A stretch of DNA of 49,615 nt from an uncultured Gammaproteobacteria bacterium (GTDB lineage: Bacteria > Pseudomonadota > Gammaproteobacteria > Xanthomonadales > SZUA-38), in assembly GCA_964630895.1 (NCBI GenBank), contig CAZVYE010000004.1, positions 1 through 49,615 on the forward strand, in the 5' to 3' direction. A program made the translations under genes and the position numbers. This document shows positions 1,651-19,485 of this stretch, in pieces (position 1 is the stretch's first letter; every line of letters starts with the position of its first letter). Below the pieces are notes generated by a model. It ran no database searches and was not told where the DNA came from. It saw only the letters and a list, made by a program, of their open reading frames with translations.

Positions 1651-3372
1651 TTACTTGCCGTTTCGGGTGATACCAATCAGACCCAATTGCTCCAGCTTCA
1701 AGATGATACGCTGAACGGACTGATCGGGAGATAGCGAACTGGTATCCAGTTCAATCTCTGCTCGCTCAGGCACTTCGTAGGGGTCGCTAATGCCGGTAAA
1801 CTCTTTAATCTTGCCTTCTCTGGCTAATGCGTACAGACCTTTTCGGTCCCGTTGCTCACATACTTCCAGCGGAGTGGCAACGTGAACCTCAATGAATCCA
1901 CCTACCGGCTCGATCATTTCACGAACTTCTCGACGTGTTTGCTGATATGGCGCGATAGGTGCACAAATAGCTACGCCACCGTTTTTGGTGATTTCGCTTG
2001 CTACAAAACCAATGCGCAACACGTTGATATTGCGGTGTTCTTTAGAAAACCCTAGTTCGCTAGATAGGTTTTTGCGCACAATGTCGCCGTCTAGCAAGGT
2101 GACCGGTCGACCGCCCATTTCCATCAGTCGAACCATCAAAGCGTTAGCAACAGTAGACTTCCCAGCACCAGAGAGTCCGGTAAAGAATACGGTGAACCCT
2201 TGCTTGTCCCGAGGCGGATAACTGCGCCGCAGTTCCTGTACAACTTCTGGGTAGGAAAACCACTCTGGAATATCCAGTCCTTCCCGTAGGCGTCTACGTA
2301 GTTCAGTGCCAGAAATATTCAACGTCGTTTCGTTCTCCCCAACATCGCCAACTGGTACGTATTGAGCGCGGTCTTGAACATAAACCATCATTTGAAACGG
2401 TACCATTTCAACACCAATCTCGTCCTGGTATTCGGAAACGAGCTCCTGGGCGTCGTAAGGTCCGTAAAACGGCTCGCCGTTGCGGTCGTTGCCAGGGCCA
2501 GCATGATCACGCCCCACGATGAAATGGCTGCAACCGTAATTTTTGCGAATAATGGCGTGCCATAGAGCTTCTCTAGGCCCACCCATGCGCATTGCCAGAT
2601 TCAAAAGGCTGAGTTCAGTGGTTGCTTCAGGAAAACGCTCCAGCAGCTTTTCGTAGCAACGGACACGTGTCATGTGGTCTACGTCGCCCGGCTTGGTCAA
2701 TCCCACTACCGGATGAATGAGTAAGTTGGCCTGCGCCATTTGTGCGGCTCTGAAGCTCAGTTCCTGGTGTGCGCGGTGCATGGGATTGCGAGTTTGGAAG
2801 GCAACAATCCGACTCCAACCCATGCGCTCGAATCGCTCCCGCAACCGGGCAGGCGTAACCCGCAAATGTCTGAAATCGTAGTGGGTAGGCATCTGGATGC
2901 CGCGAATCTTACCGCCCACGTAGACAGGGTTGCTCTGGTTGAGCAGGTAATTCACGGCAGGATGCAAATCATCCGTTGTGCCAAATACCTGCTCAGCTTC
3001 GTTGGATTTGTCTGGCTGCCAGATGTCTTCAATGCTCAAAACACCAACGGCAACGCCCTCTGGATCGCGTAGCGTCAGGTTACCGCCAACTTCGAGCTGT
3101 TCGGCAAACTCTTCACTCACGTCAAGGGTTATTGGCATAGGCCAGACTGTGCCGTCGGAAAGACGCATGTCAGAAACGACACTGTCATAATCGGCCTGGT
3201 TGAGAAACCCTTCCAGCGGCGAGAACGAACCGTCTAGGAGCATTTCCATGTCGCATAACTGGCGTGCATTAAGATCCCAGGATGGGTGCTCGTTCGACTC
3301 TGTTTTGAGTGATCCAGCGTCATCGACTATAAGTTGTTTTAGGGCGCCGCCGTGCGGTTGAACCAATGCCAT
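1651..3372 (-). CDS. Bifunctional sulfate adenylyltransferase (ATP sulfurylase) / adenylylsulfate (APS) kinase
   Basis: 573 aa. The N-terminal two thirds are Sat-type ATP sulfurylase (FQTRNPMHRAHQEL, GRDHAGPG). The C-terminal third is APS kinase with P-loop FFTGLSGAGKSTVA. Confidence 0.9.
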   Translation of the reverse strand: MALVQPHGGALKQLIVDDAGSLKTESNEHPSWDLNARQLCDMEMLLDGSFSPLEGFLNQADYDSVVSDMRLSDGTVWPMPITLDVSEEFAEQLEVGGNLTLRDPEGVAVGVLSIEDIWQPDKSNEAEQVFGTTDDLHPAVNYLLNQSNPVYVGGKIRGIQMPTHYDFRHLRVTPARLRERFERMGWSRIVAFQTRNPMHRAHQELSFRAAQMAQANLLIHPVVGLTKPGDVDHMTRVRCYEKLLERFPEATTELSLLNLAMRMGGPREALWHAIIRKNYGCSHFIVGRDHAGPGNDRNGEPFYGPYDAQELVSEYQDEIGVEMVPFQMMVYVQDRAQYVPVGDVGENETTLNISGTELRRRLREGLDIPEWFSYPEVVQELRRSYPPRDKQGFTVFFTGLSGAGKSTVANALMVRLMEMGGRPVTLLDGDIVRKNLSSELGFSKEHRNINVLRIGFVASEITKNGGVAICAPIAPYQQTRREVREMIEPVGGFIEVHVATPLEVCEQRDRKGLYALAREGKIKEFTGISDPYEVPERAEIELDTSSLSPDQSVQRIILKLEQLGLIGITRNGK

Positions 3373-3684
3373 GAAACTTCCTTGATTTATAGGTTGAACG
3401 TTTGAGAATTAAAATGGTCTTGATGAGAGGCGTTTAAACGGTTTATGAATGCGTATTTGAATTCTCGTTAGACAAACCGCATAGTTAGAAAAGCATCACA
3501 TCGTCACAAGGCGCGCAATTCTACCTGTCTCATCCCCAGCTTGAAAGCAGTAGCTTGTTTTTTTGGCCATTGAACTGGCTTCTAGGTCACTGCAGAATAT
3601 GCGCCGGAATGAGACCGAGCAAGGAATTTGCAGCTTGGTGCTTAAACGATTTTTATCTAAGAAACAGACTTGGAGAGCGATTAC

Positions 3685-4377
3685 GTGAAGAAAACGATTT
3701 TGGCAACGCTGGTTGCGGCAGGTTTTGCCGGCCAGGTGGTTGCAGACAATCACGACGAACTCAGCTATATGCTGGGCTACGACATTGGTCAGCGCATTGG
3801 CAGCTTAGGTTTGGACGAAGTCAATAGCGAAGAGTTTATTGCAGGTCTCGAAGCTGCGATGGCTGGAAATGAGTCGCGCTTGACAGACGAGCAGGTGCAG
3901 GCAGCTACTGCGATGATCACCGAACTCCAGCAGGCCGCAATGGAAGCGCAGCGCGCTGAGCTGGCCGCGGCAGCCCAAGCCAATCAGACCGAAGGCGAAG
4001 AGTTCCTGGCGGAAAACGCTAATAAGGACGGTGTGATGGTCACGGATAGTGGCTTACAGTACGAAGTTATCGAAATGGGTGATGGTCCCAAGCCGGCCGC
4101 CACTGATGAAGTAACTGTGCACTATCGCGGTACGACCCTTGACGGTGAAGAATTCGATAGCAGCTTCAAGCGCAACGCGCCGGCTACTTTTGCACTCAAT
4201 CGCGTTATTAAGGGTTGGACTGAGGGTCTGCAATTGATGCCGGCTGGCAGTAAGTTCAAGTTTTATATCCCTGCTGATCTGGCTTACGGTGGCCGTGGAT
4301 CACCACCAAATATTGGACCGAACTCTACCTTGATCTTCGACGTCGAGCTGCTCGAAGTGAAAGGGGCTGAGGGATAA
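3685..4377 (+). CDS. fkpA: Periplasmic FKBP-type peptidyl-prolyl cis-trans isomerase (FkpA/FklB-like)
   Basis: A signal-like N-terminus (VKKTILATLVAAGFAGQVVA) precedes a helical FKBP_N region and an FKBP_C domain (VTVHYRGTTLDGEEFDSS...IKGWTEGLQLMPAGSKFKFYIPADLAYG). I prefer the GTG at 3685, with GGAG 8-10 nt upstream, over the track's TTG at 3670. Confidence 0.85.
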   Translation: MKKTILATLVAAGFAGQVVADNHDELSYMLGYDIGQRIGSLGLDEVNSEEFIAGLEAAMAGNESRLTDEQVQAATAMITELQQAAMEAQRAELAAAAQANQTEGEEFLAENANKDGVMVTDSGLQYEVIEMGDGPKPAATDEVTVHYRGTTLDGEEFDSSFKRNAPATFALNRVIKGWTEGLQLMPAGSKFKFYIPADLAYGGRGSPPNIGPNSTLIFDVELLEVKGAEG

Positions 4378-4384
4378 TAAGACT

Positions 4385-4651
4385 CTAGCTAACTTCTTGG
4401 ATCAGGCGGTGGCGCAAAAGCGTCGCCGCCAGATCTTTACCATCGGTTATCGCCACTTCTTGCGCCACTTCATACTCACGACTCATCCGAGACCCGTAAT
4501 CGTCCCAGTTTGATTCCTCCAATAGCGCGGTTAAAGCGGAAAATCCTACCTCATCTAACTCGAAGTATTTGCCGGTTGCTGTTTGCATCAGTACCGTGCC
4601 ATCTTCTGCGTGATCAATTGCGGTAGCTGGATGTGCTTTAAACATTTTCAA
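4385..4651 (-). CDS. PqqD-family RiPP recognition element (lasso B1 protein)
   Basis: 88 aa. The size and pattern (GTVLMQTATGKYFELDEVGFSALTALLEE...) fit the PqqD/RRE fold. It overlaps the B2 gene by 14 nt and is the last gene of the lasso operon. Confidence 0.75.
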   Translation of the reverse strand: MKMFKAHPATAIDHAEDGTVLMQTATGKYFELDEVGFSALTALLEESNWDDYGSRMSREYEVAQEVAITDGKDLAATLLRHRLIQEVS

Positions 4652-5054
4652 GCACTGCTAAGCCTTGATTCGGCTTGTTTCCAATCTGCATTATTCGCCA
4701 CGCTTTAACATCATTCGATTCAGGCCCAGGTGTAATCCAGGCGTGGCTAGCCAGTTGATTCCCTTGCTTTTGTTGACCGATAACTACTTGTGCGCGGTAT
4801 TGGTTTTTGGAAGCGTACGCACATATTGCAATGCTACGGCTAAGACAGTTCGACCAAGGCAACCGCATTGTTAGTGCAGCATGTTGAAAAACAGAACTGG
4901 GTAGAGGTGGCCTGTTCGCATGATTCGCTTCAAGACAGACGCGCTCTGATTGTATGCCAAACACTCGTATCTTTGTAGCAGCAATTGTCACGCGCCATGT
5001 CCAAACTAGACGTTCACTTAGTCGTCCGTAATACAAGCGCATCACGCCGCCCAT
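4638..5054 (-). CDS. Lasso peptide leader protease B2 (transglutaminase-like Cys protease)
   Basis: 138 aa with the characteristic Cys...His arrangement: NCLSRSIAICAYASKNQYRAQVVIG....ASHAWITPG. It overlaps the kinase gene by 13 nt. Confidence 0.75.
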   Translation of the reverse strand: MGGVMRLYYGRLSERLVWTWRVTIAATKIRVFGIQSERVCLEANHANRPPLPSSVFQHAALTMRLPWSNCLSRSIAICAYASKNQYRAQVVIGQQKQGNQLASHAWITPGPESNDVKAWRIMQIGNKPNQGLAVLENV

Positions 5055-5935
5055 GAATCTCTTTTGCCCAGATTCGCTAGCATGTCAATCTGGTTGTCTA
5101 GATGCTCTAATCCGACTGGATATTGCAGGGCGTAAATTGGAGTTTTCCGCGCTAATCGCGCCATCTTAGAAAAATGATCCTTGGCAATGGGCACGCTAAA
5201 ACCCTTGGCCGCGACCGTATGTTGGATCAGCGTTTGGTGAGCCTCAGTCCATTGCAGTCTGCTTATCGTGGGGGCTCCTCGCGCGGCGTCAGGTTCCAGA
5301 CGTACCACGCAATCGATTTTTTCAGGCTGTGACTCCAGAGGATTTGGCAGCTTGAGCTGCGGGTAAGGTCCAACGATGCCGGGTGAGCCGTCCTCCTGTA
5401 CTTCAACTAAAACGCCGTCGTCCGCAAAGCGCCGACCATCGGTGTGCTCGGAAACTGCGCGGGCCATTGTGGATTTTCCCGATCCGGAGCATCCAGTCAG
5501 TGCGATAGTTACGCCATTAATTCTCACTAGACTGCTGTGCAGAATGTAGTGTTTCTTGGCCGCATGGCAAAGCGCCATTCCCGGCCCCAGCACCAGCCAA
5601 TCCAAAATGGGAGTTGGCTGCTCCGTAAGCTCCCAAATGATGCTGTTCTGATCATCGACAAACAGTTTTACATCACCGGAGCCTATTCGATAGCCAGATT
5701 CAGCCCGTACAATGGCCAACGGAATTTGACCCAGATCGGTTGGAACAATGCCCGAAAATTTCACATCGTTGGCTTCCTGAAAAAAGCAAGTAGGCATTGT
5801 GTCTGGAAGCTCAAATGAGCGGGCGGCGGGTATTGTCTGCAGTGCGGTAATTTGACGATAGCTGGCAAAACCGCTGGACCCCATAGGATAAAGCCAGCGG
5901 GTGCTATTAGATGACTTTGTGCTCAGGTAGATCAT
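5042..5935 (-). CDS. HPr-kinase-like (HprK-related) serine kinase, predicted RiPP tailoring enzyme
   Basis: 297 aa with P-loop LTGCSGSGKSTMARAV in an HprK C-terminal-domain-like context. It lies directly downstream of the precursor gene, as in paeninodin-type lasso clusters. Confidence 0.65.
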   Translation of the reverse strand: MIYLSTKSSNSTRWLYPMGSSGFASYRQITALQTIPAARSFELPDTMPTCFFQEANDVKFSGIVPTDLGQIPLAIVRAESGYRIGSGDVKLFVDDQNSIIWELTEQPTPILDWLVLGPGMALCHAAKKHYILHSSLVRINGVTIALTGCSGSGKSTMARAVSEHTDGRRFADDGVLVEVQEDGSPGIVGPYPQLKLPNPLESQPEKIDCVVRLEPDAARGAPTISRLQWTEAHQTLIQHTVAAKGFSVPIAKDHFSKMARLARKTPIYALQYPVGLEHLDNQIDMLANLGKRDSWAA

Positions 5936-5937
5936 GT

Positions 5938-5952
5938 GGACACACAGTGTCC
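5938..5952 (-). promoter_or_regulatory. Intercistronic hairpin between the precursor stop and the kinase start (possible attenuator or mRNA-stability element)
   Basis: The minus strand reads TAA-TCT-GGACAC-TGT-GTGTCC-AC-ATG. This gives a perfect 6-bp GC-rich stem with a 3-nt loop that fills the 20-nt gap. There is no Shine-Dalgarno for the kinase. Confidence 0.35.
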
Positions 5953-5955
5953 AGA

Positions 5956-6132
5956 TTAAGGGCGCCTGATGGATGGCGCGCCGCTTTCCCCGGTTCCAGG
6001 GCTAGGGCCGAATGTGATATCACGCACATCGCCATGCTCTATCAGTTTGGGCTTTTGATAGGACCTTTTCTCCCCAGCGTTTGTGGAGATTTCAGGCGAT
6101 TGCAAAGCATTTTTGTTGATCTGGTCTTTCAT
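5956..6132 (-). CDS. Lasso peptide precursor (A), 58 aa, absent from the ORF track because it is under 60 aa
   Basis: My own translation of the minus strand gives MKDQINKNALQSPEISTNAGEKRSYQKPKLIEHGDVRDITFGPSPGTGESGAPSIRRP*. AGGAAA lies 5 nt upstream of the ATG, 21 nt after the cyclase stop. The leader carries the lasso motif Y-x-x-P-x-L-x3-G-x5-T-x with Thr at -2. The predicted core GPSPGTGESGAPSIRRP has Gly1 and Glu8 available for the macrolactam. Confidence 0.7.
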   Translation of the reverse strand: MKDQINKNALQSPEISTNAGEKRSYQKPKLIEHGDVRDITFGPSPGTGESGAPSIRRP

Positions 6133-6153
6133 AGTTTCCTGGAGCCGGATTGC

Positions 6154-7923
6154 TCAAGCGAAATCCGGTAAATTTTTTCGCCAAATTTCTAAAGCTAAAC
6201 AATACCAGAGAATCAGCAGCTCTGGGTCCTCTAGATGTGAATTTTTGAACCAAGTTTGCACATTGTTGCGTTTTACGAACTGAGGCCATATTGCGTCTTC
6301 CGACTCTAGTAAATTCGCTACTTGTTGTTGGCCGAGATTAAACAGTCCCAGCCGCAAGTGATCCGTAAAGGCAGTTTTATCAGGTCGCATTATGATGGAT
6401 TCGGGCAGATGCTCGCGTAGGGCTAAGCGCATCAAGTATTTGCTTGGTGGCAGTACGTCTTGTGTGTCACCATTTAATAGGTAAGCTGGTACATTTGCCA
6501 TGAACTGAACCATTTCCAAATCTCGTAATGGAAATCGATTTGCCAGTTGCCAAGGTGCAGATTCCTGTTCTGCCGTAACTGCGCAATGTGCCAACCATGC
6601 ATTGATCATGCTCTCAGCGCGATAGCGGCCGGCGTCGACTCCGACCATCTCGTGTTGCATACCGATCGCGGGCAAAGGCTCCAAGTATTCGCGCATCCAC
6701 TCTGGGTAGGGTTGCACCGCAGTTCGGCGCAGGCCGAGGCCGGGGAGTAATTTTCTCAGGCTCGGGTCCGCTAGCCAGGCGCGCGGTGAACACCACCTTA
6801 CCCCTGTGATGCCCTGGAAAAGTGCGCGCCACTTTCGATCTCGCATGAGATCGCTTAAATCATAGGAGTGATGGCAATACAACAAATCCCCAAAATCTCC
6901 CGTCAATAGAACCTGTGTGTCACGGGATTTCAATTGATCGTATATTGCGTGACGATAGCTGCGGTAGGCATCAAGAGCTGCCTCACCTTTGGCCAGATGG
7001 TTAAGCCAGTTTGAGTTTTGAAACGGTGCAAGCTGGTCACAGTCGACGAAATCAATAGGCAGGCCCAGTTCGTTTGCCAGTTCCTGGGCATAACTACTTT
7101 CATCCAGTTTTGGCCAATTTTTAAATCGGTAGCTGACCAGGGAAAGTGCCAGATCCTTACGTTCCAAACATAACTGTCGCGCAGCCCATGCAACAGCAGG
7201 CGAGTCCATGCCGCCACTCACGGCCACACTGACCCGCTTAGCGTTACCGATACAGCGTTTTGTGCTTCGCAGCAATTGACGTCTTAATTGGTCTGCCCAT
7301 TGAGATTCGGGCAGGGTCTCTTGTTTTGCATACCGCCAGGGCATGTTCCAGTAGCGGTGATGTGAAACACCCTCATGACTGAAAGTCGTAACACTTCCCG
7401 GCCTCACCTGCTTAATCTGAGAGAAGTATGTCTGATCTGGTTTTGGGTCGCGCAATGCAAACAGACGCTTTAATCGGTCCTGGTCGAGGGCTGACGAGAT
7501 GTCCTTGATTGCTAATAACCCGTCCTCGCGGGGTGCAAACCAAACAATCTCAGTTTCACCATCTTGCCGGATGCTCCAACACACCGTGCGATTGCCAATC
7601 GGGTCTCTGCGTATTCTGATTCGATTCTCTTGCGGTAGAAACTCAAACTCAATGCAGGCGCTCCAGTCACAAGGTTTCTCGAGAGCCTCATGCTGGGTCC
7701 ACGTAAGCGTAAAGCCTGAGTTTGTCGATTGAACCTCCGGCGACGGATATTCTGTTCGGTCGGTGCCGGCCAAGCAAAAAAGTCGGTGGTCGACTTGGTG
7801 TTCGTCTACTTTCGCCAGGCCGCCTGGCAGGAGAGCTGCGAGTGCGCGCCGTGCTTGGCTGCGGGTGTCTTGAGGAAGTTTGTCGCCGGCACGGAGCCAG
7901 GCGATCACAAATGCATTATTCAA
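6154..7923 (-). CDS. Lasso peptide cyclase C (asparagine synthetase B homolog lacking the N-terminal Cys nucleophile)
   Basis: 589 aa. It has PP-loop VSVAVSGGMDSPAVAW, and its N-terminus (TTG-encoded Met, then NNAFVIAW) has no Cys2. The TTG start overlaps the upstream stop (TTGA). Confidence 0.75.
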   Translation of the reverse strand: MNNAFVIAWLRAGDKLPQDTRSQARRALAALLPGGLAKVDEHQVDHRLFCLAGTDRTEYPSPEVQSTNSGFTLTWTQHEALEKPCDWSACIEFEFLPQENRIRIRRDPIGNRTVCWSIRQDGETEIVWFAPREDGLLAIKDISSALDQDRLKRLFALRDPKPDQTYFSQIKQVRPGSVTTFSHEGVSHHRYWNMPWRYAKQETLPESQWADQLRRQLLRSTKRCIGNAKRVSVAVSGGMDSPAVAWAARQLCLERKDLALSLVSYRFKNWPKLDESSYAQELANELGLPIDFVDCDQLAPFQNSNWLNHLAKGEAALDAYRSYRHAIYDQLKSRDTQVLLTGDFGDLLYCHHSYDLSDLMRDRKWRALFQGITGVRWCSPRAWLADPSLRKLLPGLGLRRTAVQPYPEWMREYLEPLPAIGMQHEMVGVDAGRYRAESMINAWLAHCAVTAEQESAPWQLANRFPLRDLEMVQFMANVPAYLLNGDTQDVLPPSKYLMRLALREHLPESIIMRPDKTAFTDHLRLGLFNLGQQQVANLLESEDAIWPQFVKRNNVQTWFKNSHLEDPELLILWYCLALEIWRKNLPDFA

Positions 7924-8975
7924 TGCGAATCCCGTAGATGTTTGCGGATGTTAGAGACTATTCGGCGCAGATACACTCCGGGTAATCGAGCGCTATGTGT
8001 TACCTGGTAGCGTTGGCGCATGTAAGCCGGGGAGGGTACGGCGTGGCGTATGTAAGTGGACAATGACTTCCATAGAGACGGCCTGGGCAAATCTGGCAGA
8101 GATTCGGAATGCTTTAATATTTTTTCCTTTAAGCGATCAATGAACTGACAAGAGTATTCAGTTTGTGTCATGGCAAGTGCACCAGAAATTGCAAGCGCAT
8201 GCTCCTTATATTGGAGGCGTTCCAAGAGCACATTTTCATCGGATTGGGCTATGCGATTGGTTAACAGGGCTAGATCGTTAAGCCAAACCAATCGTGGCGT
8301 CTCCTTATGGTGGTTGTATAGGTGCACAGCCGCGTGCAGGGTGGCATCAATCAGATCCAGTCTTCTGAGCCCGTTATCACCGAAGCATATGCTTCTTTCC
8401 CATGCCCCATGGTAGTTGATTACGTCACGGTCATGTCCATGGGTCAGAGTGCAATGCACATCAAGCCGCGTTGTAGCACCACCTGGTTCGTTCTTGTAGA
8501 AAAGCTGGGACCCAAAAGAAGTTAAATCTGCGACTTGAAGATTGGCGGAAAACCCCTGTGCAACAAGCATTTGTTCCCATTGATGCGCCTGGCCAGCGGT
8601 AACCCAGAGATCGATATCGGAAATCATTCGGTCCGTTGGCTTTGGATACAGCCAGGCACCCAGAGCCATGCCCTTCAACACAATTGCGGATAATTCGTTG
8701 TGTTCGGCAGCTGTTGCCAAGTTCGACAGGGCGCTACGTTGGCCCAAATAATAGGCGCGATATTTCCGCTGTGCTGCAGCCAGGGCTGATTGCCAGTTGG
8801 CAGGCACGTGCTCGACCTTAACCAAGGTCAAAACGCCTTCAGTCTGTAGGGCACATATCCAATCTTCCACGGATTCGTTGGTAAGTGCCAAAGCCTCAGC
8901 GCGTTGACGCACTTTTCGGGCGAGACGTCGCTCAAAATCATTCGCTTGGCTGGCTATATGAAGGTCGTCCTGCAA
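7920..8975 (-). CDS. Uncharacterised nucleotidyltransferase (NTP_transf_5-like), first gene of the lasso operon
   Basis: 351 aa. The motif VLKGMALGAWLYPKPTDRMISDIDLWV...GF matches the family pattern KG...Y...R..DiDlLv. The only in-frame start near the 5' end is TTG at 8975. Confidence 0.6.
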   Translation of the reverse strand: MQDDLHIASQANDFERRLARKVRQRAEALALTNESVEDWICALQTEGVLTLVKVEHVPANWQSALAAAQRKYRAYYLGQRSALSNLATAAEHNELSAIVLKGMALGAWLYPKPTDRMISDIDLWVTAGQAHQWEQMLVAQGFSANLQVADLTSFGSQLFYKNEPGGATTRLDVHCTLTHGHDRDVINYHGAWERSICFGDNGLRRLDLIDATLHAAVHLYNHHKETPRLVWLNDLALLTNRIAQSDENVLLERLQYKEHALAISGALAMTQTEYSCQFIDRLKEKILKHSESLPDLPRPSLWKSLSTYIRHAVPSPAYMRQRYQVTHSARLPGVYLRRIVSNIRKHLRDSH

Positions 8976-9106: not shown

Positions 9107-10810
9107 ATGTTATTGAGAGTTTTGGCAGGAGCATTTTGGCTCATCGCAGCAACGTCGGTTGTATCCCAGGCTGGCACAGCTGATAGCGTGGCAGCTAACT
9201 ACGAAAGCCAGCGTGTCACGGCTGGTCAAGCTGCTCGTGCAATGGTAGCTGACGGGTTCTCTGCGGCCATAGCGGTCCCTGCGGTGGTTCGAGCCTATCA
9301 GGACTGTGGTGCGACGGTAGATGCGATTCGGTCGACAGCAAAGTCTCATCCGGATCAAATGACTGCGGTGGTACAGGCAGTTTCCCGAATGGATAATTGT
9401 TTCTGTGGTGCGTCGGCAATGCGAACGGCTATCTGGACGAATCAGCCGCCCACCGGTCTGGCATCACAAAGGATCGAATTGCCGATGAACTGTGCATGCG
9501 CTGCAATCGCTGTCGAGGCGAGCAGTACGGCCGTGCCAATTGCGGTGAACGCAGTGGATTCGGCGATTGCCATGCTGCAACCGGCAGGACAATCGGTCGA
9601 TGCAGTGGTGTTGGGCCAGGACGGCAGCTTGTCAGCGGGACGCGAAGCACAGCGTTGCGAAGCTTCTTCCGCCGAAGCGTGGTCCGTGGGCACTCCAGCG
9701 ACACCCGGGTCTCATTCCGCTCAATGTAACGGATCCGAACTCCTGTTTTCAGAAGCAAGATTAGACGCCAAAGGCGAGGGCTATTTGGAAGTTTACAATC
9801 CATCGAGCGCGGACAAGAAGGATTTGCTGCGTGACCGATACGTGCTGGAAGTGACCATGCCCAATGCTGAGAGCCCAGCACGTCGCGTGGAACTGACAGG
9901 CGTCATTGAACCGGGTACGGCTGCCTTGATTAAAGTTGGCAACAACATGTCCAGTGCAGTTGAGCCGGTAGTAACTTCTGGTGCGCTACCGCCCATCGCA
10001 GGTGGCCAGGTGCGATTGCTTCGCGATGTTGGGCCGGATGAATGCGCCTGTTCAGAGTCGCTGGCTGGTGCAGTGTTACGGGGACTGTTGGAAGAGCAAA
10101 TAGAGAATGAAGTAGACGCAGACGCAGGAGAACTGGTCGAAGCATGGAATGCTCAGAGTTCTCGAACCATTGTTACCGGAATAGACGCGGCAAAAATTAA
10201 TCGTCGCTCGGAAACTGGTCAAACGCTATCAACGCGGGTCTTGCAGCGCGCGCAGGATGATTGTGGCAACCAACCACTTGCGATGTTTATGCGATTTGAC
10301 GATGACCGACTCAACCTGAAGGATCACGAAACCAATTGCCCGGACGAAGGTCAGGGGCGAGTTTTCATTTCGGAGGTTGCCTGGCGAGAAGATGGCCGCA
10401 TGGCTGTGGAGTTATTCAATCCGGGCGCTGAGGCAATTGATTTGGCCGCAGCGGGCATCATGATGGCCACTAGCGACGTGGAGATGAATGACAATGAAGA
10501 TGTCTCTGATCCCATTGCATTATTTGGCACAGTTGGTCCACGTGAGACTTTTGTTGTAGCCGATCAGGCTTTTGGAGCCAACCCAGCTAGCGTGGATGCT
10601 ACGCTGGATAATTTAAGTGTCGGTGGCCAGCCATCGGTCGCTTTGCGCCTTTATTCCGAGCAAAGTCCGCAGCGCTGTACATCGCCGGTGGCTGCTTTGT
10701 TTGCGACAGACCCCAGTAACTCCGTTTCTTTTGTTCCACTGCCAGAACCCCCAGGGCAAGATGATGATCCTGGCGGCACTCCTGTAGATGATGCCGTTAG
10801 TCCCAATTAA
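9107..10810 (+). CDS. Secreted Cys-rich protein with two lamin-tail-domain (LTD)-like modules
   Basis: It has a signal peptide (MLLRVLAGAFWLIAATSVVSQA). Two LTD-like cores are present: LLFSEARLDAKGEGYLEVYNPSS...DL and VFISEVAWREDGRMAVELFNPGAEAIDL. The tail is acidic and Pro-rich. AAGGAA lies upstream of the ATG. Confidence 0.5.
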   Translation: MLLRVLAGAFWLIAATSVVSQAGTADSVAANYESQRVTAGQAARAMVADGFSAAIAVPAVVRAYQDCGATVDAIRSTAKSHPDQMTAVVQAVSRMDNCFCGASAMRTAIWTNQPPTGLASQRIELPMNCACAAIAVEASSTAVPIAVNAVDSAIAMLQPAGQSVDAVVLGQDGSLSAGREAQRCEASSAEAWSVGTPATPGSHSAQCNGSELLFSEARLDAKGEGYLEVYNPSSADKKDLLRDRYVLEVTMPNAESPARRVELTGVIEPGTAALIKVGNNMSSAVEPVVTSGALPPIAGGQVRLLRDVGPDECACSESLAGAVLRGLLEEQIENEVDADAGELVEAWNAQSSRTIVTGIDAAKINRRSETGQTLSTRVLQRAQDDCGNQPLAMFMRFDDDRLNLKDHETNCPDEGQGRVFISEVAWREDGRMAVELFNPGAEAIDLAAAGIMMATSDVEMNDNEDVSDPIALFGTVGPRETFVVADQAFGANPASVDATLDNLSVGGQPSVALRLYSEQSPQRCTSPVAALFATDPSNSVSFVPLPEPPGQDDDPGGTPVDDAVSPN

Positions 10811-11008: not shown

Positions 11009-11530
11009 ATGTCTGACACGAACACAGAAAATCGCTGGTACACCGTATTTTGCAAGCCAAGACAGGAGCGCCTTGCCAATACCCATTTGCAACGCCAAGG
11101 ATTCGCGACATTCCTGCCTGAAGCGTTTAACGCCAGCAGAAGATTAAGAAAAGAGGGGCAGCGAGTAGAACCGCTGTTTCCGCGGTACTTGTTTTTACAG
11201 GCTTGTCCCCATGCTACCAATCTGGCACCTGTTGCATACACTCGCGGCGTAAGCGGGATGGTTAGATTTGGTGGCAGGTTAAGTACGGTCCCGCGCGTGG
11301 TCATTGATCAGATTAAAGCTTTGACAGATAAAGAGACAGGTCTGGTTCGGCTGGATATAGCCAAGTTGCAGGCTGGTGACAAAGTAGAAGTTTGTGAAGG
11401 CCCATTTTCAGGCATAGAAGGCTTGGTCGCACAATTGTGCGGTGAAAGCAGGGCAATAATCTTGATGCAGTGGCTCGGGAGAGAGCACACCGTTTCAGTC
11501 GAGCGAAGTGCGCTTAGGCTAGCCATTTAG
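11009..11530 (+). CDS. rfaH: RfaH-type (NusG paralog) operon-specific transcription antiterminator
   Basis: 173 aa. RWYTVFCKPRQERLANTHLQRQGF...EPLFPRYLFL...TRGVSGMVRFGG matches the NGN domain, and the KOW-like C-terminus reads GDKVEVCEGPFSGIEGLV. The layout is co-linear with E. coli RfaH. Confidence 0.8.
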   Translation: MSDTNTENRWYTVFCKPRQERLANTHLQRQGFATFLPEAFNASRRLRKEGQRVEPLFPRYLFLQACPHATNLAPVAYTRGVSGMVRFGGRLSTVPRVVIDQIKALTDKETGLVRLDIAKLQAGDKVEVCEGPFSGIEGLVAQLCGESRAIILMQWLGREHTVSVERSALRLAI

Positions 11531-13246: not shown

Positions 13247-14989
13247 ATGTGTGGCATCGGTGGAGAATACGGATACCATTTTGCTGCGTCCAAGCCTGAT
13301 CAAGAGACACTTTGCCGACTGAGAGATGCAATGCAAGCCAGGGGACCAGATGCAGCCGGCTATTGGGAAGAGCCCAAATCCAAAATCTCTCTGGTCCACA
13401 GACGGCTAACAATTATAGATGTTGACGACCGTAGTAATCAGCCCATGGTTTCAACCTGTGGGCGGTATTCAATTTCATACAACGGCGAAATCTATAATTA
13501 TCGCGCATTGCGCAAAGCGCTTGAGCGAGATGGTGTACGTTTCCGCACTGAATCGGACACTGAAGTTGTATTGGCAATGTTTGCGCAGCATGGCACCAAG
13601 ATGTTCCAGCTATTGCGTGGTATGTATTCCCTTGCGATTTGGGACACGCAGACAAAACAGTTGCTACTTGCACGCGACCCATACGGCATCAAACCGCTGT
13701 ATTATTTCGACAGCGGATGGAGCATAACTTTTGCATCTTCCGCTAAAGCACTTGCGACACATTTGGGAATCTCAAACATTGAACCAGCGGGAGCGTGTGG
13801 GTTCTACATGCTGGGCAGCGTGCCGGAACCGTGGACGATCTACTCTGGAATTTTTTCCGTTCCTGCAGGCAGTTACATTCGTATAGATGCAACCGGTCTA
13901 CAGTCTCGGCAGTATTTTTTCCCCAGCACACTGTATTCAAGAGACCAATCATTCTCACTGAAGGATTTTAGATCGCACTTACACGAGTCGGTCGCAGCGC
14001 ATATGACGGCTGATGTCGAAGTAGGCGTATTTCTCTCTGCAGGTTTGGATTCAAGCATCATTGCCTTACTTGCTTCCCAAGTAACAGACAAACGCTTAAG
14101 CACTATTACGCTTGGATTTGAAGAATACTCAGCCACGTATGACGATGAGTTTCCAAATGCGAGCCGAACCGCGGAATTGTTAGCGTCAAATCACTGCGAG
14201 AGACTGGTTAGCAAGAGAGAGTTTTTGGAAGACCTGCCTCAAATTCAGGCTCATATGGACCAACCGACAATTGATGGTATTAACACATGGTTTGTATCCA
14301 AAGCCTGTGCAGAGCAGGGAATTAAAACTGCATTATCCGGTCTTGGCGGGGATGAATTTGGCGAAGGGTATCCTGCGTTTGACAACGTGAGTCGAGCGAG
14401 ACGACTAGCGAGATGGGTGCCGGGCAAGAGGCCATTGGGCCGACTGGTTCGCGCTCTACTGAAGCGAGTTGGAACGGGACTTCACCCAAAACGGTCTGCT
14501 GCGCTGGAATACGCTGATTCGGTCGCGCGACTGTGGTTTTTGCAGCGTGCGATATTCTTGCCGCACGAACTCAAAGAACTCATGCCGGCGACTACGTTCG
14601 AAGAAGGAATGTTTAAGCTCGAAATGCAATCCCACCTGAGTGTCAGGGGTGGAAGTGACGATATGCGCATTGCGGATCAAGTCGGTTGCTTAGAGTCTTC
14701 AATGTATATGAGTAATCAACTGCTGCGGGATTCGGACTGGGCATCGATGGCTCATTCAGTTGAAGTGCGTGTCCCATTTGTTGACTTACCGTTGCTCGAG
14801 CGTTGGTTGAGTGCAGGCAATCCGGTCGTTAAACAGGAATGGTTAGATGCATTTCCCGAGCTAAAACCAATCCTGGAGAATCGTGCAAAAACCGGGTTCA
14901 CAACACCACTCCAAACATGGAGATCACTGCCTGCGCCTTGGGCAAGAGCCTGGGCCCAGGAGGTACTGCCATTCGATACCTTGCACTGA
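13247..14989 (+). CDS. Asparagine synthetase B-type glutamine amidotransferase (EPS-associated)
   Basis: MCGIGG at the N-terminus supplies the Cys2 Ntn nucleophile. PP-loop VGVFLSAGLDSS is present. 580 aa. Confidence 0.85.
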   Translation: MCGIGGEYGYHFAASKPDQETLCRLRDAMQARGPDAAGYWEEPKSKISLVHRRLTIIDVDDRSNQPMVSTCGRYSISYNGEIYNYRALRKALERDGVRFRTESDTEVVLAMFAQHGTKMFQLLRGMYSLAIWDTQTKQLLLARDPYGIKPLYYFDSGWSITFASSAKALATHLGISNIEPAGACGFYMLGSVPEPWTIYSGIFSVPAGSYIRIDATGLQSRQYFFPSTLYSRDQSFSLKDFRSHLHESVAAHMTADVEVGVFLSAGLDSSIIALLASQVTDKRLSTITLGFEEYSATYDDEFPNASRTAELLASNHCERLVSKREFLEDLPQIQAHMDQPTIDGINTWFVSKACAEQGIKTALSGLGGDEFGEGYPAFDNVSRARRLARWVPGKRPLGRLVRALLKRVGTGLHPKRSAALEYADSVARLWFLQRAIFLPHELKELMPATTFEEGMFKLEMQSHLSVRGGSDDMRIADQVGCLESSMYMSNQLLRDSDWASMAHSVEVRVPFVDLPLLERWLSAGNPVVKQEWLDAFPELKPILENRAKTGFTTPLQTWRSLPAPWARAWAQEVLPFDTLH

Positions 14990-16056
14990 TGACCGAAGCA
15001 TTTGCGGCGCACGGCGGTATCCAGCAGTTTAACCGAGACTTTTTAACCGCGCTCGACAATAGCGGCCATAGTGGTGTGGTAATTGTTCGCAACGCGGCAA
15101 ACCAGACTGTTCAGGTTTTTAGCGACACGAAACAGATCAGAATGCGCAGCAAATTGGCGTATTCAATTCGATCAATCGCTGTGACCTACCAGTATAAGCC
15201 TGACATTCTTTTCTGTGGCCATATCAATTTGATGCCGATTGCGAAGTTGCTGGGTCGCATATTCAATATTCCTATTTGGTTTCATGGACACGGCATTGAA
15301 ATTTGGGAATTGACGAAAATACAAAGGAAGTCATTGGGTTCAGCGAAGCTCCTAACTGCAGTATCTCGCTACTCAATGCAGCAACTCCGATCCCAGATGC
15401 CCAGCGCGTATCGATACCAGTTCGCGGTACTTCCAAACACCGTCAGGGCGGAGTTTCGACCAAGTACAAAGACACAATCGTGCCACCGCGGCCAAACAAG
15501 CATCCGTTTGCTTATCGTTGGTCGACTCAACAGCATGGAGCGCTACAAAGGTCACGACTGGCTGATCAACAACCTGGGATCATTAAGAGATCGGGTGGGA
15601 GATGTTCAATTGACCATCGTAGGCGATGGCGATGACAAGCAACGGTTGCAGTTTTTAACCAAGCAGCTCGGACTTTCGGATTGGGTCAACTTCATGGGTC
15701 AAGTAGATGAACAGCAGCTTCAAGAAGCGCTATTTGCGAGCGACTTGTTCGTAATGCCGAGCACCGGGGAGGGGTTTGGGATTGTTTATCTGGAAGCGAT
15801 GTCTGCAGGATTGCCCGCTATTGGCCTGGTAGACAAAGGAAGCCGTGATCCGCTGGAAGCCGAGCCTATGGGGGCGGCGTACGATCAGTCAGAACTCTTT
15901 GACAAACTGGTCGAAAGAATCCAGGCAATTCGAAATGGAAATGTAACTACCCAGCAGGGTGTTCAAGTATTTACCCGTGCCAACTTTGATGCGTTCGTAG
16001 GGGCTTTGGCCTCGCGTTTCTCCCCAGAACAGCCGGATGAGCAATGCATAAACTGA
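14989..16056 (+). CDS. Glycosyltransferase family 4 (GT-B)
   Basis: FVMPSTGEGFGIVYLEAMSAGLPAIG is the E-x7-E region. I take the start at ATG 14989, which overlaps the upstream TGA (TGATGA). The track's 14839 start would overlap asnB by 150 nt. Confidence 0.75.
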   Translation: MTEAFAAHGGIQQFNRDFLTALDNSGHSGVVIVRNAANQTVQVFSDTKQIRMRSKLAYSIRSIAVTYQYKPDILFCGHINLMPIAKLLGRIFNIPIWFHGHGIEIWELTKIQRKSLGSAKLLTAVSRYSMQQLRSQMPSAYRYQFAVLPNTVRAEFRPSTKTQSCHRGQTSIRLLIVGRLNSMERYKGHDWLINNLGSLRDRVGDVQLTIVGDGDDKQRLQFLTKQLGLSDWVNFMGQVDEQQLQEALFASDLFVMPSTGEGFGIVYLEAMSAGLPAIGLVDKGSRDPLEAEPMGAAYDQSELFDKLVERIQAIRNGNVTTQQGVQVFTRANFDAFVGALASRFSPEQPDEQCIN

Positions 16057-17738
16057 TCCTTGATTTATTGGGGCCAGCCAAAAGGCATCTACCTCTTATC
16101 GCGCTATTGATGTTGTTCTCTGGTGTGTTGGACTTGATAGGCGTGGGCTTGGTTGTGCCACTAATTCTGGCATTTTTCGATTCTACATCGGACAGATTCT
16201 CGTATTTAAGTGCAGTATCCGAGGAGGCGTTGTTGGCAGGCTTAGTGGCCGTCTTTGCTTTAAAAACATGCGCCAGCTTTCTTCTGCAGGGTCGTATAAC
16301 GCATTTCGCCCAAACCAGTCGCTTCGACCTGATGGCAAGGCTTCTTAGGGTCTACCTGCGCCAGCCGTTGTTGTTTCACATTGAAAACCATTCTAGCGAA
16401 CTCATGAATAGAGCGATTTTCTTTACCGACAGATTTGCGGGCCTGGTATTGGTTTGTGGCGCGAGACTGCTAGCTGATGGCATCGTATTTCTGGGTTTAG
16501 TTTGTGTGCTGTTATTTATTGACCCCAAAGTCACGATAGTTCTGGGCGGTATATTGGGGATTGCGTACTTGGTACTGCATATGTTCGTGAAACGCCCACT
16601 CAGAAACCTGACTGATGTCATGGCAAATTCTCAGCAGCACTTGATCAAGGCAACGCAAGATAGTCTGGGCGCAATCGAGGAGTTGAAGGTGCTGGGACAC
16701 GAGGAGGCGTTTGTTCGAACTATCGAGAAACGAGGCAGCGTCATAAGGGACGCAAATAGCCGTTACAGTGCCTTTCAGACTTTACCTCGCAACGCAGTGG
16801 AAACCATTGTGCTTGCATTTTTGGCGGCAATTGCAATCTATTTTACGCGTCAAAACACTGATCCGGCGCAGATTCTCGCCATGCTCAGCGCCTTTGCCAT
16901 GGCCGGCATCCGGCTAATACCTGCGTCAACCTCGATTATGACCAACAGTCAGCAACTTTTCGCCAATCTCGGTGTGATAAGCATATTGCATGAGAATCTT
17001 GCTCTGCCGATACCTGAATCTACGTCGCAAGATACGCGCGACGAAGCTATTGAATCTGTGGAATTGCGTCATATTTCGTTCTCTTATCCGGGTAGCAATG
17101 TGCAGGCGGTAGCTTGCAGCGAGCTGGACCTGGAATCGGGGCATGTCTATGCCATATCTGGAGAGTCAGGGGCGGGAAAAACCACCTTGGCCGGCATTTT
17201 GCTGGGGCTCATTCAGGCGGACAATGGCATGATCTTGATAAACGGAGCGGAGACTCAAAGTAGTTGGCAACAACTGTGTGCGTATATTCCCCAGAAGCCA
17301 TTTCTCTTAGACGGGTCAATTATTGAGAATGTCACCTTGGGCGAAGATGTGTCAGCGATAGACACGGACCGTATATGGCAGGCTCTGGACAAGGTGCAGC
17401 TACTGGATGTGGTTGAACAGCTGCCAGAAAAATTGCATAGCAAGGTTGGGGAAGGTGGCGGACGGCTAAGTGGTGGACAAAGACAAAGGCTAGCGTTAGC
17501 TCGGGCTTTTTACTTTCAACGTCACCTGATCGTGTTAGACGAGTCAACATCGGCTCTGGATGCGAAGACCGAGGCTAAGGTCTTGCAAGCCGTGCGTGCG
17601 CTTGCGGACGGGGCCATCGTACTTGTGATTAGTCATTCAGACATGGTGCGATCAATTGCGGATTACGAAATTCAGGTTAGCGATGGTTTGGTAAGAGCCG
17701 CCAAGAAACTAGAAAATGTCGGGCTTCTTTCTAACTAA
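16044..17738 (+). CDS. MsbA/PglK-like ABC exporter (fused TMD-NBD half transporter)
   Basis: The N-terminal half has about 6 TM segments. It carries Walker A GESGAGKTT, signature LSGGQRQRLALARA and Walker B LIVLDESTSALD. Confidence 0.85.
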   Translation: MHKLILDLLGPAKRHLPLIALLMLFSGVLDLIGVGLVVPLILAFFDSTSDRFSYLSAVSEEALLAGLVAVFALKTCASFLLQGRITHFAQTSRFDLMARLLRVYLRQPLLFHIENHSSELMNRAIFFTDRFAGLVLVCGARLLADGIVFLGLVCVLLFIDPKVTIVLGGILGIAYLVLHMFVKRPLRNLTDVMANSQQHLIKATQDSLGAIEELKVLGHEEAFVRTIEKRGSVIRDANSRYSAFQTLPRNAVETIVLAFLAAIAIYFTRQNTDPAQILAMLSAFAMAGIRLIPASTSIMTNSQQLFANLGVISILHENLALPIPESTSQDTRDEAIESVELRHISFSYPGSNVQAVACSELDLESGHVYAISGESGAGKTTLAGILLGLIQADNGMILINGAETQSSWQQLCAYIPQKPFLLDGSIIENVTLGEDVSAIDTDRIWQALDKVQLLDVVEQLPEKLHSKVGEGGGRLSGGQRQRLALARAFYFQRHLIVLDESTSALDAKTEAKVLQAVRALADGAIVLVISHSDMVRSIADYEIQVSDGLVRAAKKLENVGLLSN

Positions 17739-19485
17739 GAGCCCCATTTGCCAGGATGACTTAGAAATTGTCCAACGCGCGTTGGTGGTGCGCGAGGGTA
17801 ATCGAGCCAAGGTAATACAGCACGGAAACTGGTGTTTGGTGACATCGATCCACTCAGAACACCCTTTTCAGGAACCGCACGTTGAGCAGACCGAAAGCAC
17901 CCTCGGATTTGTCTGGGGTAGCTTGTTTACTGGTTCTCGCCGCTTAGAAAGTGCAGATATTGCGCGGCAGCCAATGTCTGACGATTGCAATTGGGAAGGC
18001 GCTGGTTTTGCCCTGCGGCTTACGGAGCAAGGAGCTGCACAGTTTCGAACTGATGCCATGGGTTTTGTTCCCATATTTAGGAGCGGGGACTCAATCAGCA
18101 GTGATCCCGACTTATTGGGTCTGTTTAATCGAGGAAATGTATCGACCTTGGCAATCGCACAAACAGTGTTCTTTTCGCGAACGCCTATGCCAAAAACATA
18201 TTGGGAGCATGTTCACGTGCTTCCGCCGGCGAACCTGTTTGAGTGGGAGCAGGGCAAGTTGCGATCAAACTGCTACTGGGAGCCAAACGCCAGCGTCACC
18301 AGCAACAAGCACCAGTTGATCGAGCAAACGGTAGAAGGCGTGCGTTCGGCAGTGCGAAGACGAGAGTCGGCAGCCAATGGAAACGTAACGCTTCTCTTGT
18401 CGGCTGGTCTCGATTCGCGCGCGATTCTATACAGCTTGGCTAATCCTGCTGCTGCTCGTTGCCTAACGCTTGCAGACACCGAGAACGAAGAGGTGAGGTT
18501 ATCCAGAGAAATCGCCAATTCTGCTGGCGCAAAGCATGTGGTTATGTTCAGAGACGTAGAACACTATCCTCGCGAATCGGCAGGTCAAGTTCAATCGTTC
18601 TATGGGATGTGGAATTTTGCGGACTTACATACCGCAGGATTAGGTCAGAAAATACTCGAAGATAGCCCTGGCATCGTAATGACCGGCTGTTATGCAGATT
18701 ATCTTTTTAAGGGAATAGAAGTTGATCGTAGATCACGGACTGTAATGGGGAGATTTGTTCCGTGGTACGCAGTTCGGAGTACCAGCGCTCAGGGTTACTG
18801 TCCACATGCCTTTACCGATGCACCCAAGTTCCAAATGGTCTTTGAAAGGTCGTTTCATGATGTGCAGCAGCAATTTGGCAGCGTTGACGAACTGAGCCTC
18901 AAGCAGAATGAGATACGCAGAATATGGCCAATCTTTATGGAGCCCAATTTGGCGTTTCGCACGGGTCTGAGACGGTACTTGCCATGGGAGCCCGTGTTCG
19001 CTGATACCGCGCTGCTTGATGTTTGGGATCATACGCCTCGACGCTGGGCAATAAACGGCGAAATCTGGAGCAAGGCAGTTGCCAAGATGTCCCCGGTTGG
19101 CTGCCGCATTAAGAATAATAACTGGTCTGGCCGGGTAGGTGCTTCTGCGCCGGAGAATGCTGTCAGACATGTGGCAGGCTCGATATTCAGGAAGTTTCAA
19201 AAGTTAAAACAAGAGATGCTTCCCGCGCACGCCACCATCGGCTCCTGGCCAAACTATGCCGTAGTTCTAGAGCAATCGAGTCGCTTCCATCAAGACTGGA
19301 ATGCCATAAGTGCGGCAACGAAAGAGTTAGTTGCCGAAGCAACAGGGCAAGACTATTGGTCGCAGGATCTCAGCCATTGGATTCGCCGCGATGCGCTTGC
19401 CTTGATGCGGGTTTTTACAATCGCGCGTTGGCATGATGGTATCGAACAAAGACGCCGGGAATGGCGTGGGAAAGTGGCAGCCTGA
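17716..19485 (+). CDS. Asparagine-synthetase-like adenylating protein without the glutaminase nucleophile
   Basis: PP-loop VTLLLSAGLDSRAILY is present. The N-terminus MSGFFLTK has Ser rather than Cys at position 2. It overlaps the ABC gene by 23 nt. 589 aa. Confidence 0.65.
   Translation: MSGFFLTKSPICQDDLEIVQRALVVREGNRAKVIQHGNWCLVTSIHSEHPFQEPHVEQTESTLGFVWGSLFTGSRRLESADIARQPMSDDCNWEGAGFALRLTEQGAAQFRTDAMGFVPIFRSGDSISSDPDLLGLFNRGNVSTLAIAQTVFFSRTPMPKTYWEHVHVLPPANLFEWEQGKLRSNCYWEPNASVTSNKHQLIEQTVEGVRSAVRRRESAANGNVTLLLSAGLDSRAILYSLANPAAARCLTLADTENEEVRLSREIANSAGAKHVVMFRDVEHYPRESAGQVQSFYGMWNFADLHTAGLGQKILEDSPGIVMTGCYADYLFKGIEVDRRSRTVMGRFVPWYAVRSTSAQGYCPHAFTDAPKFQMVFERSFHDVQQQFGSVDELSLKQNEIRRIWPIFMEPNLAFRTGLRRYLPWEPVFADTALLDVWDHTPRRWAINGEIWSKAVAKMSPVGCRIKNNNWSGRVGASAPENAVRHVAGSIFRKFQKLKQEMLPAHATIGSWPNYAVVLEQSSRFHQDWNAISAATKELVAEATGQDYWSQDLSHWIRRDALALMRVFTIARWHDGIEQRRREWRGKVAA

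Follow-up and report, generated by a model that had tools for sequence, protein, structure and literature searches.

The stretch of DNA analysed here, 49,615 nt of contig CAZVYE010000004.1 (the window, by which we mean the whole stretch), carries a lasso peptide operon of six co-directional open reading frames (ORFs) on the minus strand. According to the ORF listing they span positions 4385-8975 (about 4.6 kb) in the order N-C-A-K-B2-B1. Along with a precursor (A), a cyclase (C) and split B proteins (B1 and B2), the operon encodes an HprK-like kinase (K) and a nucleotidyltransferase-fold protein (N). A first-pass annotation of this DNA had placed a split-B lasso operon with kinase and nucleotidyltransferase genes at exactly these coordinates, and the proposal holds, as N, C, A, B2 and B1 match their families above cut-off and K is recognized by its fold.

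Genes of the lasso operon

N, 7920-8975, minus strand, 351 aa: NTP_transf_5 (PF14907) nucleotidyltransferase-fold tailoring enzyme
C, 6154-7923, minus strand, 589 aa: lasso cyclase (macrolactam synthetase), homologous to asparagine synthetase but lacking the glutaminase nucleophile
A, 5956-6132, minus strand, 58 aa: lasso precursor, with the leader at 6010-6132 (41 aa) and the predicted core at 5959-6009 (17 aa)
K, 5042-5935, minus strand, 297 aa: HprK/PEPCK-fold P-loop peptide kinase
B2, 4638-5054, minus strand, 138 aa: transglutaminase-like cysteine protease, the leader peptidase
B1, 4385-4651, minus strand, 88 aa: PqqD-type recognition element for peptides made on the ribosome and modified after translation (RiPPs), leader-binding

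Families were assigned by Pfam and NCBIfam hidden Markov model (HMM) scans against curated cut-offs. C matches PF00733 Asn_synthase (E=1.3e-22, 81.4 bits vs a cut-off of 21), and of the NCBIfam models the one for lasso cyclases, NF033535, fits it best (2.4e-39), though below the cut-off (135 vs 525). Its PP-loop, SGGMDS, lies at residues 236-241, its N-terminus (MNNAFV) is without Cys2, and no HMM matched a GATase domain in it, in contrast to the AsnB of the window. The latter (13247-14989), our positive control, starts MCGI, with GATase_6/7 matched at about 1e-40 and a TIGR01536 score of 360 bits. Thus the 589-aa protein is, as first supposed, not a bona fide AsnB.

The 138-aa and 88-aa proteins do belong to the lasso B2 and PqqD families to which they had been ascribed. 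B2 matches PF13471 (39 bits vs a cut-off of 26) and NF033537 lasso_biosyn_B2 (34.5 bits vs 33); in an alignment, Cys70 (in NCLSRS, residues 69-74) and His104 (in SHAWIT, residues 103-108) are invariant in nine homologues and BsfB2. These two motifs and the SGGMDS of C are the three that the first-pass annotation had quoted. B1 matches PF05402 PqqD (30 bits vs 23.4) and, below cut-off, the lasso PqqD chaperone model NF033530 (9.4e-11). It also lies downstream of B2 in six related loci (L006, L008, L009, L011, L015 and L017).

The precursor, MKDQINKNALQSPEISTNAGEKRSYQKPKLIEHGDVRDITF|GPSPGTGESGAPSIRRP (leader|predicted core), matches NF033521 lasso_leader_L3 ('lasso RiPP family leader') in the NCBIfam scan, with 24.3 bits vs a cut-off of 19. 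Its register, Y25-Q-K-P28-K-L30...T40-F41|G42, places Y at -17, P at -14, L at -12, T at -2 and Phe at -1, and by this pattern the leader has the canonical register predicted for B1/B2 recognition, YxxPxL plus Thr(-2). The predicted core, GPSPGTGESGAPSIRRP, has 17 residues, of which G1 to E8 would form a ring of 8 residues, followed by a 9-residue tail. Four prolines are present (P2, P4, P12 and P17), and the C-terminal residue is Pro (the core ends ...IRRP), not Ser. The calculated monoisotopic mass of the lasso form is 1603.81 Da, and 1683.77 Da if phosphorylated. With further groups on the phosphate, the calculated masses are 1845.826 (one hexose), 2007.879 (two hexoses), 2012.826 (AMP) and 1989.798 Da (UMP); the [M+2H]2+ ion of the lasso form without phosphate would lie at 802.911.

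N matches PF14907 NTP_transf_5 over residues 55-270 (E=1.7e-29, 103.6 bits vs a cut-off of 31.2). It has G102, D120-x-D122 (in SDIDLWV), D172-x-H174 and a His-rich segment at 214-223 (H214...H222H223); the DxD, DxH and His motifs are kept in the homologues of L006, L008, L009, L010 and L015. D120/D122 correspond to D134/D136 of PsmN, matched by the published motif and not by the PsmN sequence, a pair needed for PsmN activity (PMC6993621). Sequence and profile searches against the PDB found no solved relative of N, and a single-sequence structure model was unusable (predicted local distance difference test (pLDDT) of 40).

K was modelled and its fold searched because its HMM scores are weak: it matches PF07475 Hpr_kinase_C below cut-off (E=9e-5) and TIGR04352 with 33.4 bits vs a trusted cut-off of 200 (E=2.5e-8). 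The precomputed Pfam assignment in the database is PF27840 'ScmC'. Among the HMM families first named for this operon, PF13471, PF05402, PF00733 and PF14907 are matched above cut-off, PF07475 and TIGR04352 below it. The AlphaFold2 model of K, built from a 40-sequence alignment (pLDDT 90.6, predicted TM-score 0.89), has phosphoenolpyruvate carboxykinases (PEPCK) as its best Foldseek matches in the PDB (E about 3e-6), and also matches the HprK/P catalytic domain (1kkl, 2qmh and 1jb1; E about 4e-5, target TM about 0.5). At the level of the model this confirms a PEPCK/HprK P-loop fold for K. Residues H133, G151, G153, K154, S155, T156, D172 and D173 are invariant across 40 homologues (H-GxSGxGKS-DD motif). 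They correspond to the H-G-G-G-K-S-D-D set of BsfK, to which K is 26% identical over 175 aa (pairwise E=8e-5) and in which these residues are needed by mutagenesis (PMC10368454).

On the minus strand, N and C share a 4-nt overlap (TTGA), a gap of 21 nt with AGGAAA ahead of the precursor ATG separates C from A, and 20 nt separate A from K. K and B2 overlap by 13 nt, or meet at a TGATG junction if B2 starts at Met5, and B2 and B1 overlap by 14 nt, or by 8 nt if B1 starts at an ATG. Overlaps of 4-14 nt and gaps of at most 22 nt had been claimed, in agreement with these values. Judging from this spacing, the junctions are translationally coupled, with K coupled between A and B2. The starts of N, B2 and B1 are uncertain by a few to about 50 codons; N starts with TTG, no ribosome-binding site is visible ahead of it, and its PF14907 match begins only at residue 55. 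A simple promoter and terminator scan gave fewer sites than in shuffles and no promoter-like site upstream of N, and an Rfam scan gave no regulatory RNA near the operon. A hairpin in the A-K gap (GGACAC-UGU-GUGUCC, 5939-5953, minus strand, 6-7 bp) was rejected as a feature (z = -0.26 vs shuffled sequence); it is also not conserved, the A-K gaps in relatives being 0-5 nt. Neither an S9 isopeptidase nor a dedicated exporter was found in or beside the operon, as the first reading of this DNA had it.

A precursor family with a near-invariant core

A profile built from 15 precursors retrieved at least 548 protein clusters at E≤0.01, and 116 of the top 120 matches have the canonical leader register. 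The core statistics below are for those 116 relatives, a sample influenced by the profile and not by the DNA pattern described further on. The family core is near-invariant, G[P/V][S/T]PGxGESGxP, in Gammaproteobacteria, one deltaproteobacterial metagenome-assembled genome (MAG) and Acidobacteriota, and leader Thr(-2) is present in every relative (116/116). By position, the 116 cores contain:

Position 1: G in 116
Position 2: P in 102, V in 10
Position 3: S in 78, T in 38; Ser or Thr in all
Position 4: P in 106
Position 5: G in 116
Position 6: variable
Position 7: G in 115
Position 8: E in 114, D in 2
Position 9: S in 116
Position 10: G in 116
Position 11: N in 75, A in 13, C in 12
Position 12: P in 95, E in 14
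Position 15: F in 83, L in 19, R in 11
Position 16: R in 72, K in 40
C-terminal residue: variable; P in 45, A in 16, I in 15, V in 12, R in 10, S in 4

The modal core length is 17 residues, and neither Thr6 nor Ser13 of the window core is conserved. In the window and 16 other loci, the Ser9 codon is AGC or AGT only and never TCN (17/17), although the search pattern allowed both, and position 3 is encoded by TCN, AGC or ACN. A synonymous/non-synonymous count in the core is biased, as the pattern fixed 8/12 residues, and was not used as evidence of selection. A few members are already annotated at NCBI as 'lasso RiPP family leader peptide-containing protein', among them one from a cultured species, Arenicella xantha. 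The latter (GPTFGGGESGCEGIFKVGPGGCPGP, with an extended tail) belongs to a Cys-rich sub-family (P0240, P0248, P0181, P0207, P0251, P0261 and others) whose members keep a GPTxGxGESG ring, have Cys11/Glu12 and carry 2-4 cysteines in a long tail; they are possibly lasso variants with disulfide bridges. For no member of the family is a product known, and in the literature searched there was no relevant paper on the core motif or linking PF14907 to lasso peptides.

The proteins of the operon have no close relatives. An exact look-up of the window K in public assemblies gave no match, the best matches of K and C in a word-indexed search of a 5.8-billion-protein index were about 30% identical, and an exhaustive representative search returned 1784 representatives of the K family, none more than 39% identical to K. 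One Lysobacterales MAG contig (L001) encodes an N fragment-C-A-K-B2-B1, a convergent fkpA and then sat, and its core, GPTPGVGESGNPSIRRP, is almost the same as that of the window. A collection of representative genomes was also scanned with the back-translated precursor pattern D[IV]TxGPxPGxGESG, giving 14 real loci and one chance match (Streptomyces), 15 in all. All real loci are from MAGs, assigned to Lysobacterales, Oceanospirillales, unclassified Gammaproteobacteria and Pseudomonadota, one 'Deltaproteobacteria', and Thermoanaerobaculia (Acidobacteriota). The order N-C-A-K-B2-B1 with a near-identical core is found in L006, L008, L009, L010 and L015, and in part on the shorter contigs of L001, L005/L011, L014 and L017.

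In the window, fkpA (FKBP_N and FKBP_C domains; 3670-4377, plus strand) is convergent with the operon, its stop 7 nt from that of B1, and beyond it lies a bifunctional sat/APS (adenosine 5'-phosphosulfate)-kinase gene (1651-3372, minus strand). A convergent fkpA directly follows the operon in nine gammaproteobacterial loci (L001 and its duplicate L013 taken once) and is 55-60% identical to that of the window; sat, wherever visible in related loci, is 75% identical to that of the window. The lasso enzymes at the fkpA-linked loci are 25-38% identical to those of the window, and 21-46% identical over all loci compared. By gene order, the operon in this gammaproteobacterial clade sits between a polysaccharide (EPS) locus and fkpA/sat. 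The most economical reading would be that the operon is inherited vertically at a fixed place in the chromosome, where the enzymes evolve fast and the peptide is under strong constraint. The adjacency of fkpA is probably conserved synteny; the presence of a prolyl isomerase, FkpA, beside a four-proline core might also point to a functional tie. Directly upstream of N, a divergent gene (9107-10810, plus strand) encodes a 567-aa protein whose N-terminus is hydrophobic and which matches the Lamin Tail Domain only weakly, under the cut-off. An Oceanospirillales MAG (L010) has a 23%-identical counterpart at the same position, and L009 carries a UDP-glucose dehydrogenase upstream of N.

The same precursor family is found with other sets of genes. 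L018, L022 and L024 have the order C-A-[C25 protein]-K-FG-GAP, without B1, B2 and N, the C25 protein being a P_proprotein/GEVED/Peptidase_C25 protein of about 1400 aa. In L021 the order is C-A-C25 and no K-like ORF was detected, and L004 has C-A-K with the C25 gene convergent; these five loci are on contigs of Thermoanaerobaculia and other lineages outside the Gammaproteobacteria. In L020 and L023 the order is [M35 aspzincin]-C-A, with no B genes or HprK-like kinase in view; L020 encodes a Hanks-type Ser/Thr kinase 3 kb downstream. L003 has C-A plus downstream genes as in L023, on a contig that ends upstream of C, and C-A alone is found in L012 and L019. The peptidase genes lie at the following positions of their loci:

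C25 peptidase, L018: 3260-7438
C25 peptidase, L021: 8188-12375
C25 peptidase, L022: 7199-11428
C25 peptidase, L024: 7201-11397
C25 peptidase, L004: 3-3260
M35 peptidase, L020: 4987-6051 and 8277-9329
M35 peptidase, L023: 3904-4947

Because B1 and B2 are absent from these clusters, the C25 and M35 peptidases may have taken over leader removal as alternative leader peptidases. The literature searched contained no paper that connects C25 peptidases with lasso clusters. Of the accessory genes, K is linked to this core most consistently, even in the C-A-C25-K architecture, which argues that phosphorylation could be integral to the product.

Known systems, the proposed pathway and its alternatives

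To our knowledge, lasso peptides with both kinase and nucleotidyltransferase tailoring are represented by only a few systems. Systems of this type are nonetheless known, bsf, mmv and psm likewise being split-B lasso clusters that include K and N, and standard annotation would recognize the operon.

The nearest characterised analogue, on the genes and core compared, appears to be the bsf cluster of Bradymonas sediminis FA350, which encodes A, B1, B2, C, D, K and N and whose precursor has Asp as its last residue (Duan et al. 2023, PMC10368454). The residue phosphorylated by BsfK is Ser3 of a G1...D8 core, where Thr is tolerated (S3T); the kinase depends on the leader, and B1 stimulates it (PMC10368454). 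We consider bsf closest because the window core also has Ser3. Both operons are split-B with an HprK-like kinase and a predicted nucleotidyltransferase, both precursors lack a C-terminal Ser, and both have the YxxPxL leader motif, the kinase motif H...GxSGxGKS...DD and a core with G1, a hydroxyl residue at 3, an acidic residue at 8 and Pro12; for neither is a mature product known. They differ at leader position -2, Thr in the window and Ile in bsf, the Bsf-type Ile/Val(-2) being absent from all 116 relatives as well. The cores are otherwise unrelated (GPSPGTGESGAPSIRRP vs GTSGNEVDGSTPADRGNNPGD). The window host is gammaproteobacterium-like with the operon at a conserved chromosomal site, and bsf has an ABC (ATP-binding cassette) exporter whereas the window operon has none. 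Of the Bradymonadales relatives of bsf (pcy, mmv, llb, lss and lvt), mmv lacks the exporter D (PMC10368454) and in this resembles the window.

The psm (pseudomycoidin) cluster of Bacillus pseudomycoides DSM 12442 is the only K and N pair with a demonstrated joint product (Zyubko et al. 2019, PMC6993621). PsmK (poly)phosphorylates the peptide, attachment of one or two hexoses (+162 Da each) to the phosphate depends on PsmN, and a PsmN DxD double mutant is inactive (PMC6993621). Like psm, the window operon encodes an NTP_transf-fold N alongside K, with a DxD. Unlike it, psm comes from a Firmicute, is phosphorylated on a C-terminal Ser that the window core lacks, and has the order C-A-K-B1-B2-N-D with an exporter, so that its N follows B2 while that of the window is the first gene.

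In paeninodin, ThcoA, SyanA and PsmA, HprK-like kinases act on the linear precursor, phosphorylating its strictly conserved C-terminal Ser (PMC9266682, PMC8498205). The paeninodin cluster (pade; Zhu et al. 2016, as described in PMC9266682 and PMC8498205) shares with the window an HprK-like kinase in a split-B lasso cluster, and the kinase had led the first-pass annotation to class the operon as paeninodin-type. That class does not fit: the window core ends in Pro and not the phosphoacceptor Ser, which only 4 of the 116 relatives have. The companion claim, that such systems were characterised in Firmicutes and that proteobacterial ones with the nucleotidyltransferase have no characterised product, is half right. 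SyanK is a proteobacterial precursor kinase (PMC9266682, PMC8498205) and BsfK too has been assayed, while a mature proteobacterial product of K and N is indeed lacking, that of bsf having gone undetected. The suggested resemblance to the HPr-rel-A system (TIGR04352) likewise does not amount to membership. A distant HprK-like kinase is paired with a PqqD-family protein in both, yet the TIGR04352 score of K stays far under its cut-off, and B1 matches lasso PqqD models and not the HPr-rel-A partner, TIGR04353 being absent from its NCBIfam matches at E≤1.

Given these comparisons, the window probably encodes an intact class-II-type split-B lasso operon in which K would phosphorylate the core, most likely at Ser3, and N would decorate the phosphate, each step being proposed by analogy. 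B1 would bind the YxxPxL leader motif of the 58-aa precursor. K would then phosphorylate a core hydroxyl while the leader is attached; Ser3 is favoured because only Ser or Thr occurs at this position in the family and BsfK uses this site, with Ser9 the alternative. B2 would cleave after Phe(-1) (Phe41), and C would adenylate Glu8 and close the Gly1-Glu8 isopeptide ring around the tail to yield a 17-residue lasso, presumably threaded. N would add to the phosphate either one or two hexoses, if PsmN is a guide, or a nucleotidyl group, as the fold suggests.

Several points weigh against this account. No product has been observed for the window operon or any other member of the precursor family, and even the bsf product went undetected in several hosts (PMC10368454). 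K alone among the six genes has no HMM match above a curated cut-off. As to the chemistry of N, even its analogue PsmN might be a glycosyltransferase or might act indirectly via a host enzyme (PMC6993621). When the catalytic segment of K was compared with those of twelve published lasso kinases (segments from Suppl. Fig. S10 of PMC10368454), it was equally far from the kinases acting on Ser3 (the Bsf group) and on a C-terminal Ser (PadeK, ThcoK, PsmK and SyanK), at 31-46% identity over 47-99 residues. Kinase similarity was accordingly dropped as a means of assigning the site, since it did not discriminate between the groups, and the assignment rests on the substrate and not the enzyme. Finally, Ser/Thr3 and Ser9 are conserved with no kinase within 7-8 kb on each side in L019, L020 and L023, and L003 likewise keeps both with no kinase downstream of A. 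Their conservation may therefore reflect folding or target binding and not phosphorylation.

It is also conceivable, though on balance unlikely, that the same lasso operon modifies another site, with K acting on Ser9, Thr6 or Ser13 or polyphosphorylating a single residue, and N acting on that phosphate. Ser9 lies next to the isopeptide Glu8 and is strictly Ser in all 116 relatives, the kinase comparison gives the Bsf group no edge over the C-terminal-Ser group, and polyphosphorylation is documented for ThcoK, SyanK and PsmK. Against this, the exchange of Ser and Thr at position 3 (78 to 38) is what would be expected if only the hydroxyl matters, and it fits the regioselectivity of BsfK and its tolerance of S3T (PMC10368454). 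The lack of conservation of Thr6 and Ser13 also speaks against those two sites.

We think it quite improbable that K and N do not modify the peptide but serve self-protection or regulation, or that the phosphate is a transient leaving group for conversion of Ser to dehydroalanine as in class III/IV lanthipeptides. A role in self-protection would be plausible in an operon without an exporter or immunity gene, and a 2026 review mentions a lasso peptide with dehydroalanine from a 'hybrid' system. Yet all lasso-associated HprK-like kinases characterised so far act on their precursors, and K is, by its junctions, translationally coupled between A and B2; for the dehydroalanine route no lyase domain is encoded, and the motifs of N are those of a nucleotidyltransferase, not a lyase. 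That the operon is a silent or decaying remnant from which no product is made is scarcely credible, as six intact reading frames with conserved catalytic residues, and an operon and core kept at the same locus in many gammaproteobacterial MAGs despite enzyme identities of only 25-38%, outweigh the missing promoter-like site and exporter, the TTG start of N without a clear ribosome-binding site and the silence of the related bsf cluster in the laboratory (PMC10368454). Retention of the core despite divergence of the enzymes would rather imply long-term purifying selection on the product.

On present comparisons, the main novelty lies at the level of the family, a predicted large and uncharacterised lasso family with a near-invariant core and a conserved, exporter-free locus. 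Conservation of a core across phyla usually points to a specific, conserved molecular target. More speculatively, the GP[S/T]PGxGESGxP peptide may be a 'core-genome' lasso peptide of ancient origin that is inherited vertically, has a conserved physiological role or target, is not a typical strain-specific antibiotic, and bears a phospho-(glyco or nucleotidyl) Ser/Thr in its ring. We offer this tentatively, because the core is near-constant across phyla while the enzymes have diverged to 25-30% identity and have even been swapped, and because the peptide would be made without an exporter from a fixed EPS-fkpA locus. If true, such an in-ring residue would be a chemotype not yet seen in mature lasso peptides. 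If one member were solved, the product of hundreds of clusters would be defined. It would also become clear whether mature lasso peptides contain in-ring phospho-Ser/Thr, be it with or without a hexose or nucleotide, and what role PF14907 enzymes play. The window operon, being compact (4.6 kb) and exporter-free, is suited to refactoring.

The adjoining polysaccharide locus and the rest of the window

The lasso operon does adjoin an EPS locus, as had been claimed. The locus occupies 11009-42422 on the plus strand (the 11-42 kb region) and is headed by an RfaH-type antiterminator (11009-11530). It encodes a UDP-glucose dehydrogenase, the AsnB that served as our control, about ten glycosyltransferases, an FkbM methyltransferase, a Wzy-like protein and a BBP2 porin, together with Wza (38317-38853) and Wzc (38887-41109).

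The only ABC exporter gene in the window (16044-17738, plus strand) is inside this locus and is MsbA/PglK-like. It overlaps by 23 nt a second Asn_synthase-like ORF (17716-19485, plus strand), which encodes 589 aa without a GATase domain. The two were considered as a second cyclase/exporter pair and rejected, as the ORF has no lasso-cyclase match, the exporter is of the MsbA/PglK-like type and both are embedded in the polysaccharide locus. The ORF matches PF00733 weakly and probably encodes a sugar amidotransferase-like enzyme rather than a second cyclase. Near the end of the window, at 49140-49236 on the minus strand, lies a bacterial small signal recognition particle (SRP) RNA (RF00169, 65.5 bits).

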